Positions 3,367 to 33,708 of a DNA stretch of 64,000 nt are shown one piece after another. The position numbers and the translations under genes were made by a program. The notes beneath the pieces are model-generated. The model was given only the letters and a program-made list of their open reading frames with translations, made no database searches and was not told the origin of the DNA. How positions within the stretch are numbered: position 1 is the stretch's first letter; each line of letters starts with the position of its first letter. Origin of the DNA: a virus; IMG/VR virus record IMGVR_UViG_3300033485_000002, positions 64,001 through 128,000 of that record. One strand, written 5' to 3'.

Positions 3367-4154
3367 GCCGAGTGGCACTGGCAGAGGCAGTTGAGCAAGG
3401 GCTGGAGAATCCGTTCACGACCGAATATCTGGAAAAGGAAATCCAGTTTTACAACCCGGTGCCGTATGCCAAGGATGGGTTGGTCCTCAAGCTCAAATCG
3501 ATCAAACACCCTGTCCGCATCGATGAGTACCTCAACAAGCAGATGGTGTGTGAGGGACCGGCTATCCCGATCCTTACGTTTGACGGTACGATCTGGATGA
3601 GCCTGACGTGGCTGGAAGTGGAGTCGCATTGGGTACCGTTCCAGACCTTTGGCGGGGATATCCTGGTTGGTGGCCTCGGGATGGGGTATGCGGCGCTTCG
3701 GTTCGCGGCGATGGAGCATGTTGATTCCGTCACCGTGTACGAGACGGACAAGAGGGTGATCGACTTCTTCCAGGCTACCCAAGGAGATCGCCCGGAGCAG
3801 GCTAAGATCCGGGTTATCCACGAGGACATCCACAAGGCCCAGGGCCGCTACGAGTTCGCCTTTATTGATATCTATCCGACGCTATTGCCGGATGAGCTGC
3901 TGAGGGACGCGAGGTTCTTCTGTGAGAGCCGTCCTGGTCTGTCGATCATGGAGACTCCCCACTTCTGGGGGCAGGAGCTTGCGTGGCTGACCCTGATGCA
4001 GCGGCGGGTGTACAAGCCGTTTAGTCTGTCCTATGTCGAGCGTATGTTCTTTGAGTATTGGTGGAAAACAGATAAGCCTGATCTTGCCCGTGAGATCGAG
4101 GATGTTCGCTTCTGTTCATCTTTGGCGAAGGTGATGAGCAGGGTGGAGGACTAA
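3363..4154 (+). CDS. Class I SAM-dependent methyltransferase-like (spermidine-synthase-like fold)
   Basis: ILVGGLGMGY motif I, VTVYETD acidic motif II, FIDIYP. Confidence 0.7.
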   Translation: MSRVALAEAVEQGLENPFTTEYLEKEIQFYNPVPYAKDGLVLKLKSIKHPVRIDEYLNKQMVCEGPAIPILTFDGTIWMSLTWLEVESHWVPFQTFGGDILVGGLGMGYAALRFAAMEHVDSVTVYETDKRVIDFFQATQGDRPEQAKIRVIHEDIHKAQGRYEFAFIDIYPTLLPDELLRDARFFCESRPGLSIMETPHFWGQELAWLTLMQRRVYKPFSLSYVERMFFEYWWKTDKPDLAREIEDVRFCSSLAKVMSRVED

Positions 4155-4939: not shown

Positions 4940-6193
4940 ATGGCTAATCTTACTCCCATCTACGATCACAATTGCACGCTCTGCCCCTTACATAAAGTGC
5001 CGGGGGTTACTTGTTTGTCCGGGATCGGCAACCTGGACGACCCGAGCATCCTTATAGTGGGGGATGGGCCGTCGAAGCAGGAGGTGCTGCTTGGTCGGGC
5101 GTTCGGCGATGAGCGGGGTAGGCTGCTCGCTCAGTCGCTCGATGAGATCGGTTTCCCCATCGGGCCTAAAGGCGATGTGTTTGCTACCTACGCCGTTAAG
5201 TGCTTCCCGTCTGGTAAGGTAAAGGTTAAGGATGCCAAGATTTGCGCGGCGAAGTATCTCAACCAGGAGATCGACCTTTTCCGCCCGAAGTTGGTTATAG
5301 CGCTGGGTAAAACCGCCCAATATGCCGTCTTGGGTAGTACTGCACCTATCTCTAAAACTAGGGGCAAGCTGTTCCCCTTAGTTCGTACCGACGCAGCAGG
5401 AAATGAGTGGACAACCCAGGTCATGCCGGTGGATCATCCATTCTCTATCCTCACCACACCGGCCAAGCTGGACCCGTGGCTCGCTGATCTGCGGCGGGCT
5501 AAGGCGGTGTTTTATGGCGACGGAAATCCTTACTGGTCGCCGGAGAAGCTGGAGCGGTTTGACTTTAAAGTGATTGATTCTATCGCGCAGTTCAAAGCAG
5601 TTGCACGGGAGCTTATTGCCAAGCACAGGGGCGAGTACCTAGCTATCGACATTGAAGCTAGTGGTGTTGATGAGGCTATGAACGATGATGACTTTCGGGT
5701 TTTCAGCTTGCAGTTCGGGCTTATAGATTTGGAGGGGCGCGAGGAACATCCGGTCTACTTCCTACCCATCCAGTCGGCGGGGTTCCCGTGGACATCTGAG
5801 GCTAAGTGGCTGGATAATACCGCCCGCCTGCTGAATCGGTTTCTGAGCACGGACTACTTCAAGCTGGTGGGGCATAACCTAAAGTACGATTTGAAAGCGC
5901 TTAGACGGATTGGTGTAACTGAAGCATATGCCGTCTATGACACGCTGATGGCATGGTCAATTGCACATGGTGAAGCACCGTTGTCTCTGAAAACAATTGC
6001 TTACGAGGTTAGTGATTTAGGTGGGTACGAAGTCCTTATGGATCAGTACTTTAAGGAGCACGGTACTTATGACGCCCCCCCCGAAATTCTAATCTCGTAC
6101 AGTTGCCTTGATGTTGTGCTTGTGCGCTACCTTTTTAGTGAGCTGTACAAAACGATCCTTCAAGAGAAAAAGCGTGTTAACATTGGAGTATGA
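4940..6193 (+). CDS. Uracil-DNA glycosylase family 4-like domain fused to DnaQ-like 3'-5' exonuclease (N-terminal half of split DNA polymerase A)
   Basis: CTLCPLH, IVGDGP, AVKCFP...C, LVIALG and HP motifs (UDG-4); ExoI DIEASG, ExoII GHNLKYD, ExoIII YSCLD. Confidence 0.85.
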   Translation: MANLTPIYDHNCTLCPLHKVPGVTCLSGIGNLDDPSILIVGDGPSKQEVLLGRAFGDERGRLLAQSLDEIGFPIGPKGDVFATYAVKCFPSGKVKVKDAKICAAKYLNQEIDLFRPKLVIALGKTAQYAVLGSTAPISKTRGKLFPLVRTDAAGNEWTTQVMPVDHPFSILTTPAKLDPWLADLRRAKAVFYGDGNPYWSPEKLERFDFKVIDSIAQFKAVARELIAKHRGEYLAIDIEASGVDEAMNDDDFRVFSLQFGLIDLEGREEHPVYFLPIQSAGFPWTSEAKWLDNTARLLNRFLSTDYFKLVGHNLKYDLKALRRIGVTEAYAVYDTLMAWSIAHGEAPLSLKTIAYEVSDLGGYEVLMDQYFKEHGTYDAPPEILISYSCLDVVLVRYLFSELYKTILQEKKRVNIGV

Positions 6194-6197
6194 GCTA

Positions 6198-6267
6198 TTG
6201 TCATGGCTGGGTGCGGTGTGGCGAGGCCAGGTAGGGTATGGCATGGTGTGGCTCGGCAAGGCAGGGG
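6198..6267 (+). ncRNA. Orphan gapped-guide (VIPR-like) unit: TTGTC-AT followed by 12 perfect GGY-NN pentamers
   Basis: ggc tg/ggt gc/ggt gt/ggc ga/ggc ca/ggt ag/ggt at/ggc at/ggt gt/ggc tc/ggc aa/ggc ag; same TGTC handle as the array at 32.75-33.4 kb. Confidence 0.75.
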
Positions 6268-6293
6268 AGCCTCGGTTTAGTAAGGGGGTCTAA

Positions 6294-7778
6294 ATGATTC
6301 GGTTCCATTCGGATGCCGAAGGCGGTAGTCCTCGGTGGCTGTGTGATTATCAGTCTCTATTGGTCAATGCTTTTGTCGATATTGAGAGCTGCGGTTTTCC
6401 TTTCGATCCTATTCAACATGCACAGTTTATCGAGAATGCCGAACGTACTTATGCCGAGTACGAACGGCGATTGATGACCAGCCCCCAACTGCAAGCCTAC
6501 ATCCAGCAGAAGGGGCTGCCCGCTACGGGTAAACGGGCGTTTAACCTGTCCTCGGCCACCCAACTCCAGGAGTTCCTCTTCAGCCCGCGTAGTTCAGGGG
6601 GCCTGGAGCTTGTACCCGTAAAGCGCTCTAAGCTGACGGATAAGGCTAGTTCCGACCGAGAGTCCTTGCAGCATTTCGCTCAGGCAGGCAACGCTTTCTG
6701 CTCGGATCTATTGGTGTTACGGAATTTCGGTAAGCTATTGTCGTCGTTTGGTGAGCCGCTCTTAAAGTTCTACTGTCCTCGCACCGGAGCAGTTCACCCG
6801 ACCTACTTCCTGGCCAAGGTGACAGATAGTGCTGGGGTTGCAGGCGGTACTGCGACCGGACGGCTGTCGTGCAAGCACCCCAACATGCAGCAGCTACCGA
6901 AGCGGGATAAAGATGACAAGGGAATTGGGCTGGCGGGGATCGACGTGCGGAAGTCCTTCGTGCCGTTTCCGGGCCACATCCTTATAGAGTGCGACCAGAG
7001 CCAGATCGAGGTGCGGGTCGCCGGGATGTACGCTAAGGATACGACGATGGGTAAGTTCTTCGATGAGGGGGGAGACTTCCACATCCGGGTGGCCTCTCAG
7101 GTGTTCCAACAGGATTTCGATCATATGGTCGAGGTGTTGGCGAATGAGCACCATCCCGAGTACAAGAAGTTCAAGCAATTCCGTACTGCCGCTAAAACCT
7201 TTACCTTTGGTCTGATGTTCGGTATGGGGTTGAATAAGCTGACCAGACAATCCGGGTTGACTGAGGCTGAAGGTAAAGCTTTTATCGATGAGTACTTTGC
7301 TACTTTCCCTCAGTTCGCTTCGTGGCGTGAGGAGATGATTGATTGGGCTACCGAGCACGGATGGGTCCAAACCTTATTCGGGCGTAAAAGAACCATAAAG
7401 ATTAGCGGCTATGAAACGGAGGATGGTCGGGAGGAACGCATTGGCATCAACACTCCGATTCAGAGTGCGGCGGCAGATATTACTCTGTTTGCGCTCAGCC
7501 GGTTGTGGGAGTTCTTGAAGGCCAACGGTTACGGGGCAAAGATTCTTGGCACGGTCCATGACTCTATTATCTTCTCGGTGCCCTACGAGGAGTTCGAGGA
7601 GCTATTACCGGAGATAGCCCGGAGGATGATCCGTCCACCTGGGCTGGAGTGGCTTTTGGATGACGTGCCGATTCCCCTGTCGATTGGCATTGAGGCGGGG
7701 CCTAACCTCAAGGATATGCACAAGTTAGACCTCGATGACGTGCTGACCTGCTCCCTCGACGTAAAGGATTATCTATGA
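6294..7778 (+). CDS. polA: DNA polymerase family A, polymerase domain
   Basis: TATGRLSCKHPNMQQLP, motif A DQSQIEVR, motif B RTAAKTFTFGLMFG, NTPIQSAAAD, motif C TVHDS. Confidence 0.95.
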   Translation: MIRFHSDAEGGSPRWLCDYQSLLVNAFVDIESCGFPFDPIQHAQFIENAERTYAEYERRLMTSPQLQAYIQQKGLPATGKRAFNLSSATQLQEFLFSPRSSGGLELVPVKRSKLTDKASSDRESLQHFAQAGNAFCSDLLVLRNFGKLLSSFGEPLLKFYCPRTGAVHPTYFLAKVTDSAGVAGGTATGRLSCKHPNMQQLPKRDKDDKGIGLAGIDVRKSFVPFPGHILIECDQSQIEVRVAGMYAKDTTMGKFFDEGGDFHIRVASQVFQQDFDHMVEVLANEHHPEYKKFKQFRTAAKTFTFGLMFGMGLNKLTRQSGLTEAEGKAFIDEYFATFPQFASWREEMIDWATEHGWVQTLFGRKRTIKISGYETEDGREERIGINTPIQSAAADITLFALSRLWEFLKANGYGAKILGTVHDSIIFSVPYEEFEELLPEIARRMIRPPGLEWLLDDVPIPLSIGIEAGPNLKDMHKLDLDDVLTCSLDVKDYL

Positions 7779-31330: not shown

Positions 31331-31406
31331 GGGCCGTTAGCTCAGTTGGTAGAGCATTTGTCTTACACGCAAGTGGTCGCTGGTTCAAGTCCAGCACGGC
31401 CCACCA
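31331..31406 (+). tRNA. tRNA-Val(TAC)
   Basis: GGGCCGT/ACGGCCC acceptor stem, CT-TAC-AC loop, GTTCAAGTC T-arm, encoded CCA. Confidence 0.95.
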
Positions 31407-31427: not shown

Positions 31428-31456
31428 TTGACAACATCGACCACTTCACCTATCTT
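31428..31456 (+). promoter_or_regulatory. Sigma70-like promoter of the Cas7-like/array operon
   Basis: TTGACA-17 nt-TATCTT, then AGGAGG RBS. Confidence 0.75.
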
Positions 31457-31476: not shown

Positions 31477-32259
31477 ATGGTACGTAAGAAGAAAGAAGCG
31501 GTCGCCGAAAACGAAGAGATCCAGGTGTTTAAGGTCGAAAGGGGGGAAGTGTCGTACTGTGTTTTGGGTCTTACTCCACTGATCACGGAAGCGATGAGCG
31601 AGAAGGTGAAGCGGGAGCTGTTGCTGCCCAAGGGCCGTAAGACCGCTGCCGACAAGGCGGGCACGGCCAAGCACGATGTGCTGGAGGAGTACCGCAACAG
31701 CACCTATCAGGCGAAGGACGATACGTCTCCGACTCGGATCGTGATTCCGTCTACTGCCTTCAAGGGTGCGCTCAGGGACGTGGCGACCGATATCCCCGGT
31801 GCCGCAAAGGCGCAGATCGGTCGGTTGGCGTTTGTTAAGGGCTACCATATCCCCGTGTTCGGGGTGCCGCAGCTCATCATGTCGGTGGTTCGTAACTCGG
31901 ACCAGAACCATACTCCTGACATTAGGACTCGGGCGATCCTGCCTCGGTGGGCCTGCTATCTCACGATCGAGTACACGATCCCGCTGTTGAATGATGTTGT
32001 CGTGACCAACCTGCTGGCCGCTGCTGGCCTGATGCGGGGTATTGGTGGTTGGCGTCCGCAGAAGGGGGCTGGTGACTTCGGGCAGTTCACGCTCGTTGAC
32101 CAGGACAACCCCGAGTTCTTGGACATCGTTGCCACTGGTGGGCGTGAGCCGCAGGATCTGGCGCTGGCCGATCCTGAGTGTTTCGATAGCGAGACGGTGA
32201 ACATGCTGTCGTGGTTCATGGCGGAAACCAAGCGGCGTGGTCTCAAGGTTGTGAGCTAG
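31477..32259 (+). CDS. Cas7/RAMP-like (Vipr-like) RNA-guided effector protein
   Basis: RAMP hallmarks: G.TPL in the first strand, IPSTAFKGALRD, C-terminal G-rich loop AG..RGIGGWRPQKG.G.FGQF; directly upstream of the pentamer array. Confidence 0.8.
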   Translation: MVRKKKEAVAENEEIQVFKVERGEVSYCVLGLTPLITEAMSEKVKRELLLPKGRKTAADKAGTAKHDVLEEYRNSTYQAKDDTSPTRIVIPSTAFKGALRDVATDIPGAAKAQIGRLAFVKGYHIPVFGVPQLIMSVVRNSDQNHTPDIRTRAILPRWACYLTIEYTIPLLNDVVVTNLLAAAGLMRGIGGWRPQKGAGDFGQFTLVDQDNPEFLDIVATGGREPQDLALADPECFDSETVNMLSWFMAETKRRGLKVVS

Positions 32260-32752: not shown

Positions 32753-33404
32753 ATTGTCACGGTTTAGCTGTCAAGGTACGATCGGGATTGTTCGGGTTTG
32801 TCAAGGAAAGTCAAGATCTGGCGCGGTCGGGTGAGGCTGTCGTGGTTCGGTCAGATCCGTTCAGGGATGTTAGGGAAAGATATGGTGTGTTCTGGTGGGG
32901 GAAGATTCGGATGGGCAAGGTGAGGCTGTCCAGGTAAGGTTCGGTGGGATGGGGCGTGTTACGGCGACTTAGGGTTAGTCATGGGCAGGTTCGGCTGTCA
33001 CGGTATGGCACGTTAGTTTCGGGTTAGTCAAGGACGGGAACGGTGCGATCAGGTCTGATCCGGTCTGACTGTCACGGTACGTGTCGTAGGGTAGGAAAAG
33101 GCAAGGCTCAGCATGTTAGGGTTCGGTGAGGCTAGGCTGTCACGGTGTCGTGAGGATGGGACCGGCAGGGCCGGGTTCGTTGCTGGCGTGGCATATTTTG
33201 GCGGGGCTTGGCTGTCATGGTGATTTTTGCGTTCAGGCGTGATTGGGCCTGACAGGATTCGATTAGGCAGGGCCGGGTAAGGTTTGGCTGTCACGGTGGG
33301 ATATGGACGGATCCGGAAGGGAGAGATGCGTTCTGGCGGGGTCTGGTGGGGCTGGGTGAGACCGGGTGGGACGAGATTTGGTAAGATCCGGTCAGGTCTG
33401 ACTG
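32753..33404 (+). ncRNA. Gapped-guide (VIPR-like) array: 8 units of (G/A)(G/A)CTGTC-NN handle plus G-led pentamers
   Basis: Handles at 32766, 32835, 32924, 32993, 33067, 33135, 33210 and 33286 (spacings 69, 89, 69, 74, 68, 75, 76, i.e. 9+5n with small indels); 5-nt periodic G between handles. Confidence 0.85.
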
Positions 33405-33411
33405 GTATGTT

Positions 33412-33487
33412 GGGGGAGTAGCCCAACGGTAGAGGCGGAGGACTTAAAATCCTTTCAGTGTGGGTTCGAATCCCACCTTCCCCACCA
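33412..33487 (+). tRNA. tRNA-Leu(TAA), short variable arm
   Basis: GGGGGAG/CTTCCCC acceptor stem, GAGGA-CT-TAA-AA-TCCTT, GTTCGAATC, CCA. Confidence 0.9.
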
Positions 33488-33497
33488 ATGTGCTAAG

Positions 33498-33568
33498 GGG
33501 GGTATCACTCAGTGGCCGAGTAGCGGGCTTTTAACCCGCCTACCAGGGTTCGATTCCCTGTGCCCCCA
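33498..33568 (+). tRNA. tRNA-Lys(TTT)
   Basis: GGGGGTA/TGCCCCC acceptor stem, GCGGG-CT-TTT-AA-CCCGC, GTTCGATTC; no encoded CCA. Confidence 0.85.
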
Positions 33569-33708
33569 CTTTTGGAGCTAATATGGACGAGCTTAATCAA
33601 AATGTTGAACGGTTGCTGTGGATCTGGAGTCTGCTCTGCCTCAGCGTAACTGTAGTGGGTTTGTTTATTTGGTGGATAGGGAGATATCGTGATAAGTAGG
33701 AGATAGGA

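Follow-up and report, generated by a model that had tools for sequence, protein, structure and literature searches.

A long terminal guide unit in a staggered VIPR array of a large phage and its correspondence to the integrase Box I motif

What purpose could be served by a guide RNA that reads like the catalytic-arginine motif of tyrosine integrases, when it is encoded in a staggered array by a large phage that apparently has no integrase? This question is raised by a locus located in the window analysed here, a stretch of 64,000 nucleotides from the 168-kb IMG/VR record IMGVR_UViG_3300033485_000002 (all positions below are those of the window). The locus resembles VIPR, a system that combines guide RNAs (vrRNAs) composed of GGY/NN pentamers with a small RAMP protein (Vipr) and an accessory gene (vap) (bioRxiv 10.64898/2026.04.26.720920; two 2026 bioRxiv preprints). 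Each repeat is bound by one Vipr protomer, with the GGY hidden, and the NN dinucleotides pair with double-stranded DNA in such a way that every third target base is skipped (NNxNNx...), usually the wobble position of the codon; binding silences transcription, and rival phages and satellites are targeted in nature (2026 bioRxiv preprints). The protein polymerises along the guide RNA, flipping bases out at a fixed period; the reported guide length is 9-16 repeats, natural targets were called when at least 80% of the NN matched, and self-targeting was found in none of the systems surveyed (2026 bioRxiv preprint). Staggered vrRNA arrays with 1-nt overlaps have also been described (bioRxiv 10.64898/2026.04.26.720920, fig. 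S18 legend), and relaxed repeats ('a related consensus') are allowed. VIPR has been described only recently, and most of what is known about it comes from two type II systems, so that any natural locus that can be resolved well is informative.

Organization of the locus and of unit 8

The features of the locus are listed in Table 1. The array occupies a non-coding region that is rich in G and poor in C (271 and 109 residues, respectively), and its eight units measure, in order, 69, 89, 69, 74, 68, 75, 76 and 119 nt. All of them start at the sequence G(G/A)CT|GTC, in which the lattice of pentamers is displaced by 1 nt through a 4-nt element. Units 1-4 and 8 are regular, and in the first four of these the first base of the pentamer is G in 55 of 57 cases; small indels of the lattice are present in units 5-7. 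The pentamer GACTG closes both unit 8 and unit 4.

Table 1. Features of the VIPR locus and of the solitary unit, with their positions in the window
Feature	Position	Strand	Basis or remark
Sigma-70-like promoter candidate, TTGACA-17-TATCTT	31428-31456	+	Consensus scan 10/12; pattern match only; upstream of vipr
vipr (P0001), 260-aa Cas7-like RAMP protein	31477-32259	+	Fold model and family profile
vap-like accessory gene (P0002), 159 aa	32268-32747	+	Conserved neighbour of vipr in related loci
Staggered vrRNA array, 8 units	32766-33404	+	Period-5 G runs, unit starts, base composition
Junction GGCT|GTCAC, opening of unit 8	33286-33294	+	GGCTG is the closing pentamer of unit 7; its G is common to GTCAC
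Guide body of unit 8 (23 G-R-Y-N-N pentamers)	33290-33404	+	Variable NN at 33293+5i
Unit 8 portion in register with integrase Box I (NN 0-18)	33293-33384	+	Pattern scans and tblastn
Linker GTATGTT, 7 nt, from the end of unit 8 to tRNA-Leu	33405-33411	+	Sequence
tRNA-Leu(UAA)	33412-33487	+	ARAGORN and Rfam
tRNA-Lys(UUU)	33498-33569	+	ARAGORN and Rfam; after tRNA-Leu
Solitary vrRNA-like ninth unit, GTCAT and 13 GGY-NN pentamers	6200-6269	+	Period-5 G scan

The array region was compared with Rfam, which returned the tRNAs and no further RNA family, and with the GenBank phages by blastn, in which only the tRNAs were matched. The tract also differs from a CRISPR array, for which identical direct repeats of 25-40 nt between contiguous spacers and nearby cas1/cas2 would be expected: the only recurring element is the junction of approximately 12-18 nt, which is in phase with the pentamer lattice, and the genes found around the array are vipr, vap and tRNAs. 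A tRNA-Val is found at 31331-31406, just upstream of the vipr promoter candidate, and tRNA-Leu and tRNA-Lys (33412-33569) directly follow the array. The presence of tRNA genes at both sides of the VIPR locus suggests that they are co-transcribed with it, and that tRNA processing helps to release the last guide.

Unit 8 had been singled out in the initial annotation as the longest guide, with 22 dinucleotides read at a fixed spacing, and both statements are borne out by the sequence. Its 119 nt compare with 68-89 nt in the other seven units, and the 22 listed dinucleotides are all present at period 5 from position 33293, whereas the next-best combination of offset and period recovers 6 of 22. 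A G occupies each fifth base from 33290 to 33405, and this run of 24 is the longest of its kind in the 168-kb record. Among the 23 pentamers, position 1 is always G, position 2 is G in 13, A in 8, T in 2 and never C, and position 3 is T in 14, C in 6, A in 3 and never G; positions 4 and 5 are near-random, with entropies of 1.88 and 1.93 bits. Unit 8 thus consists of 22-23 repeats in which the constant triplet is relaxed to G-(G/A/T)-(T/C/A). Folding of the unit 8 RNA was somewhat better than that of shuffled sequences (z -2.8). The 8-mer GATCCGGN, which contains a GGATCC-like palindromic sequence, occurs twice in this unit (33308-33315 and 33386-33393), and the two copies account for most of its predicted self-pairing.

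The vipr and vap genes and their relation to known systems

A Pfam search with the 260-aa product of vipr and the 159-aa product of the vap-like gene gave no match for either of them. However, 1272 homologs of the vipr product were found in metagenomes, and the AF2 model obtained from an alignment with 41 homologs had a pLDDT of 80.6. When this model was compared with the PDB using Foldseek, 99 matches with E<=1e-3 were obtained, and the best of them were Csm3, the type VII Cas7, Cas7-11 and Cmr4 (E about 1e-5). The family profile of the vipr product had a single match among the PDB sequences, 36pp ('SUSP1 Vipr protein'); its alignment with SUSP1 Vipr by hhalign (92.7% probability, E 4e-7) spans the last beta-strand and the G-loop GVGDWRP. 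From the model and the profile, the vipr product is predicted to be a small stand-alone RAMP protein related to Vipr, with an RRM core, a G-loop and a thumb.

In SUSP1 Vipr, the GGY bases are read by D177, W178 and R179; D177 contacts the first G, and its substitution by alanine caused the loss of silencing (2026 bioRxiv preprint). The G-loop of the vipr product conserves W192 and R193, and a glycine (Gly191) is located at the equivalent position of D177, which in 42 relatives is occupied by Asp in 36 and by Gly in 6. Residue 191 makes the G-loop GIGGWRP instead of the GVGDWRP of SUSP1 Vipr and of these 36 relatives. Gly191 may go together with the relaxed second position, G-(G/A/T), of this array.

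The product of the vap-like gene is 30-47% identical to that of the gene adjacent to vipr in nine related loci, including those of the actinophages Ecliptus, Pipp and Mattes. We examined 11 related loci, three from actinophages and eight from metagenomic contigs, and in all of them G(G/A)C-NN pentamer arrays were found beside a vipr-like gene, often with the same one-base stagger. The NN of these arrays are hypervariable while the pairing of gene and array stays conserved, and none of the 11 arrays includes a guide similar to unit 8.

These characteristics indicate a staggered-array VIPR with an architecture other than type II, the one found in Escherichia phage SUSP1 (vipr agp039, vap1 agp038, vrRNA1-4; PDB 36pp). 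With the staggered-array systems it shares, in a phage, a RAMP gene, an accessory gene and tandem pentamer guides, the overlap of one nucleotide between guides (here GGCT|GTC, with a shared G), and variable NN that follow a coding sequence and skip the wobble base. It differs from them in the triplet, here G-(G/A/T)-(T/C/A) versus GGY, in the number of repeats of unit 8 (22-23 versus 9-16), in that the array stops 7 nt before a tRNA gene, and in that its putative target, the catalytic motif of an integrase, belongs to a class unnamed in the main text of the preprint. The order vipr-vap-array, the guides made of G-rich pentamers and the alignment of the G-loop, GxG(D)WRP, and its flanking beta-strand are common to SUSP1. 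In contrast, SUSP1 Vipr has 195 aa versus 260 aa here, with a similarity that is seen only by profile, and the SUSP1 guides are separate, follow a strict GGT/GGC and end in a 3' hairpin/pseudoknot tail, whereas the units of the present array have no tail and abut by the 1-nt overlap. A type II guide comprises 9-16 repeats and an invariant structured 3' tail, and unit 8 departs from it in both respects.

The locus was also compared with the Cas7 backbone proteins of Class 1 CRISPR-Cas (Csm3, Cmr4 and Cas7-11). The RAMP fold with thumb and G-loop is common to both, as are the polymerisation on a guide RNA and the flipping of bases at a fixed period (for VIPR, as reported in the preprint). However, the VIPR locus has no repeat-spacer array, cas1/cas2 or other cas genes, and the VIPR guide is non-contiguous, with two of every five bases pairing versus five of every six. 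Because the locus fits the description of VIPR, reading its dinucleotides as codons follows a published rule rather than numerology.

The closest known systems also include the vipr-like loci of the actinophages, namely Mycobacterium phage Mattes (gp52-53) and Gordonia phages Ecliptus (gp19-20) and Pipp (gp42-44), whose products are 27-29% identical to that of vipr and which also have the conserved partner gene and adjoining GGC-NN arrays with GGCA|GGC staggers. In contrast to the present phage, Mattes, Ecliptus and Pipp are temperate and encode an integrase and repressors of their own, and their arrays are shorter, strictly GGC and unrelated in guide content. The vipr-like genes of Mattes (gp52), Ecliptus (gp19) and Pipp (gp42) are unannotated; vap-like genes are also present, together with staggered GGC-NN arrays at 2631-2883 (Mattes), 3632-3849 (Ecliptus) and 3659-3880 (Pipp) of the examined loci, and the annotated protein-coding gene gp43 of Pipp covers part of its array region.

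Correspondence of unit 8 and other units to integrase motifs

Under the rule by which one base is skipped, the coding-sense reading of unit 8 is TGMRP(S/R)EALGLGW(E/D)RG(E/D)(F/L), followed by (K/N)-P-(Q/H)-L. On re-reading, the decoding proposed in the initial annotation was found to be correct; over the 22 dinucleotides it is T-G-[IM]-R-P-[RS]-[DE]-A-L-G-L-G-[CW*]-[DE]-R-G-[DE]-[FL]-[KN]-P-[HQ]-L. This peptide was compared in frame with the consensus of Box I, the motif of the tyrosine integrases that includes their first catalytic arginine, TG(M/L)R-x2-E(A/L)L-x-L-x-W-x2-(V/I)D(L/F). The match to this consensus that had been claimed was observed at 11 of the 12 constrained positions; however, there is a single deviation and not two, which corresponds to GG in place of the usual V/I at NN 15. 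With the dinucleotide composition of the array itself, the chance of matching at least 11 of the 12 positions is about 7e-11 per start and, over roughly 260 starts and strands, about 2e-8 per motif. The wobble alignment and the register with Box I hold for approximately 19 codons. At the ends of the unit, the AC at NN 0 belongs to the semi-constant junction GTC-AC, which is common to four of the eight units, and the closing CC CA CT, and in part the AA, fit no integrase consensus.

It had also been anticipated that integrase genes would carry the gapped pattern above background, and this was supported by the gapped scans and by a peptide search. The exact scan of IMG/VR with NN 0-10 (the first 11 dinucleotides, that is, 22 specified bases) gave four matches, all of them in frame on the integrase sequence TGMRPSEALGL, and that of the JGI metagenomes with NN 1-10 gave 10, nine of which were in-frame Box I sequences. 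When IMG/VR was scanned with a pattern anchored only on NN 6-10, 12-13 and 16-17, the 98 matches were all Box I sequences, TG.R..EALGL.W(E/D)..DF. The unanchored NN 0-3 (TGMR), and often NN 18 (K), were matched in these sequences as well, hence the two ends of the guide corroborate each other. In a tblastn search of 50,697 GenBank phage genomes, the decoded 22-aa peptide was placed at 23 sites, of which 20 are under annotated integrases, two are in unannotated records and one is in a duplicate record where the same gene is called hypothetical; none is under any other named gene, and the individual E-values were weak (4-10). Two actinobacterial genomes provided 19 integrase loci, which were selected regardless of the guide. 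The three best scores (11, 10 and 9 of 22) were all located on Box I, and shuffled guides in the same loci had a mean maximum of 8.85.

The full pattern that had been proposed fared less well than its first half. The first-half patterns match integrases, but TG.GA at NN 12-13 was present in none of the 14 first-half matches. No match to the whole guide was found in IMG/VR, the JGI metagenomes or 185,579 species genomes; the best totals were 13 of 22 NN in the metagenomes and 14 of 22 (64%) in IMG/VR, below the 80% of the preprint. Exact scans gave no matches with NN 10-19 in viral sequences or with NN 4-15 in metagenomes, and NN 6-15 in the 185,579 species genomes gave 10 GC-rich chance matches, none of which was an integrase or could be extended. 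No match was obtained by tblastn of the unit 8 peptide against plasmids. The decoded 24-aa peptide of unit 8 and those of two other units had no match in a Pfam scan because these peptides are too short. The mismatches of unit 8 fall where integrases vary (NN 4-5, 11, 14-15 and 19-21), and P-S at NN 4-5, R at NN 14 and K at NN 18 are each found in individual integrases. This variation makes it plausible that the target is an unsampled integrase with the sequence TGMRPSEALGL(G/R)W(E/D)R(G/V)(D/E)(F/L)(K/N). Taken together, these data support the idea that unit 8 spells the conserved catalytic-arginine motif of the tyrosine integrases.

Other units also point to integrases. Read antisense, unit 6 (33135-33209, + strand) contains nine consecutive NN, GC GA CG CT GG CA TC AC GT, with one exact match in IMG/VR, which corresponds to the integrase sequence AERLGHSTV. 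Unit 7 (33210-33285, + strand), also antisense, reads (K/N)(F/L)RLY(D/E)L(R/S)(H/Q)T(C/W). Among 133 integrase-bearing loci, its two best sites were RLYDLRHLC and RLYDLRHTC, and this HxLRH box also contained many of the next-best sites; the highest score did not exceed that of the shuffled controls, and exact scans of IMG/VR with 11 NN and with 9 NN gave no matches. The lattice is broken by a 1-nt insertion in unit 6 (T at 33184) and shows an irregularity, TTTTTGC, in unit 7 (33224-33230). For unit 3, the exact 9-NN scan of viral sequences gave no matches, which leaves its integrase reading unconfirmed, and in 114 integrase-bearing loci units 1-4 did not score above shuffled guides. None of the other units matched the integrases found with unit 8, and no single integrase was matched by several units. 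At least two further units therefore point to integrase motifs, and this supports the integrase reading of unit 8.

Possible targets of unit 8

Given that the variable bases of unit 8 follow Box I in register, we consider it most likely that this last and longest guide of the array is aimed at an integrase gene carried by a competitor, which may be a temperate phage, a satellite or another integrating element. From what the preprints describe, the operon and the array would be transcribed together and the RNA cut at the staggered junctions, and RNase P, by cleaving at the 5' end of tRNA-Leu 7 nt downstream, may define the 3' end of unit 8. By analogy with SUSP1, 22-23 Vipr protomers would coat the unit 8 RNA as a helical filament, with one protomer per G-R-Y triplet, and each of them would expose two variable bases for gapped pairing with double-stranded DNA, placing the skipped base on the codon wobble. 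The filament would then pair with the template strand of the integrase gene and block its transcription, so that the integration or excision of the rival prophage or satellite would be hindered.

Several characteristics count against this interpretation: the match below 80%, the unmatched 3' end, the AC shared with the junction, the Gly at the D177 equivalent, the relaxed triplet, the 22-23 repeats beyond the range of 9-16, and the self-folding of unit 8, which is unneeded for a protein-coated linear guide. If the interpretation is confirmed, the integrases of competing elements would become a named class of VIPR targets, and phages would be aiming a code that skips the wobble base at sites that the rival cannot mutate without losing the function of the enzyme. 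Unit 8 exceeds the maximum reported length by half, and its array is followed almost immediately by a tRNA gene; this guide also offers a ready-made test of the mismatch tolerance and the length limits of the Vipr filament.

The alternative that survives best is that unit 8 is a genuine guide acting at the level of the family, against the protein-conserved Box I; by skipping the wobble base and tolerating some mismatches, it would be able to bind a large number of unrelated integrases, and units 6, 7 and 8 would make up a pan-integrase silencing set. As the VIPR code ignores the wobble base, guides would recognise conservation at the protein level, and targeting could be directed at a family rather than at a sequence. 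In favour of it, unit 8 matches the portion of the integrase family that is best conserved, 12-14 of the 22 NN are matched in each of several integrase lineages, two other conserved motifs of the integrases correspond to units 6 and 7, and no one gene is matched by several units. However, in SUSP1, the disturbance of NN pairing abolished silencing and natural targets were called at 80% or more of the NN (2026 bioRxiv preprint), and a match of 55-64% is not known to be sufficient; in addition, the 3' third of unit 8 fits no consensus. For these reasons, a family-level guide seems to us a possible but unlikely explanation, and we regard as similarly doubtful the broader proposal that units 8, 7 and 6, and possibly unit 3, form a weapon against separate catalytic motifs of the tyrosine recombinases (the Box I Arg, the HxLRH box and the LGH box) that silences the integrases of many unrelated prophages and satellites simultaneously.

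It is improbable that the resemblance to Box I is a coincidence and that unit 8 has another target or is a decayed guide without one. The lack of a full-length target in IMG/VR, the JGI metagenomes and the 185,579 species genomes, the lattice indels of units 5-7, which suggest decay, and the empty exact 9-NN scans of units 3 and 7 would agree with this possibility. It is opposed by the very low chance calculated above for the motif match, by the observation that the integrases recovered with a pattern anchored on one portion of the guide match its other portion as well, and by the peptide search, in which only integrase-annotated or unannotated sites were obtained from the phage genomes.

Even less probable is that unit 8 regulates an integrase or another gene of the phage itself, located in the unsequenced part of its genome, which would make it a case of self-regulation and not of conflict between elements. 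The record is estimated to be 77% complete, hence such a gene could be missing from it. However, the available 168 kb include no PF00589 gene and no site that matches any guide above the shuffled controls; the best self-match of unit 8 was 10 of 22, equal to that of shuffled guides (mean 9.0, maximum 11), and, as mentioned, no self-targeting was found in the systems surveyed in the preprint.

We give almost no weight to the notion that the tract is a repetitive DNA or RNA with another role (TRAP-like protein wrapping, two-layer G-quadruplexes, an origin or a packaging site), since, although TRAP-type proteins bind triplets with 2-nt spacers and a G-rich period-5 GGNNN could form G-quadruplexes, the adjoining gene encodes a Cas7-like RAMP protein related to SUSP1 Vipr, its pairing with an array of hypervariable NN is conserved in every relative examined, and many pentamers begin with GA or GT and not with GG. 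TRAP-like triplet binding, two-layer G-quadruplexes, R-loop origins and CsrA sponges had been considered as candidates, and were dropped on account of the RAMP gene and the conserved array pairing.

Outside the locus, the solitary ninth unit is the sole other period-5 G array across the 168-kb record, and its pentamers are canonical GGY-NN. It is located 25 kb from vipr, in a gap of 100 nt within a split family-A DNA polymerase, between a UDG/3'-5' exonuclease gene (4940-6193) and a polymerase-domain gene (6294-7778).
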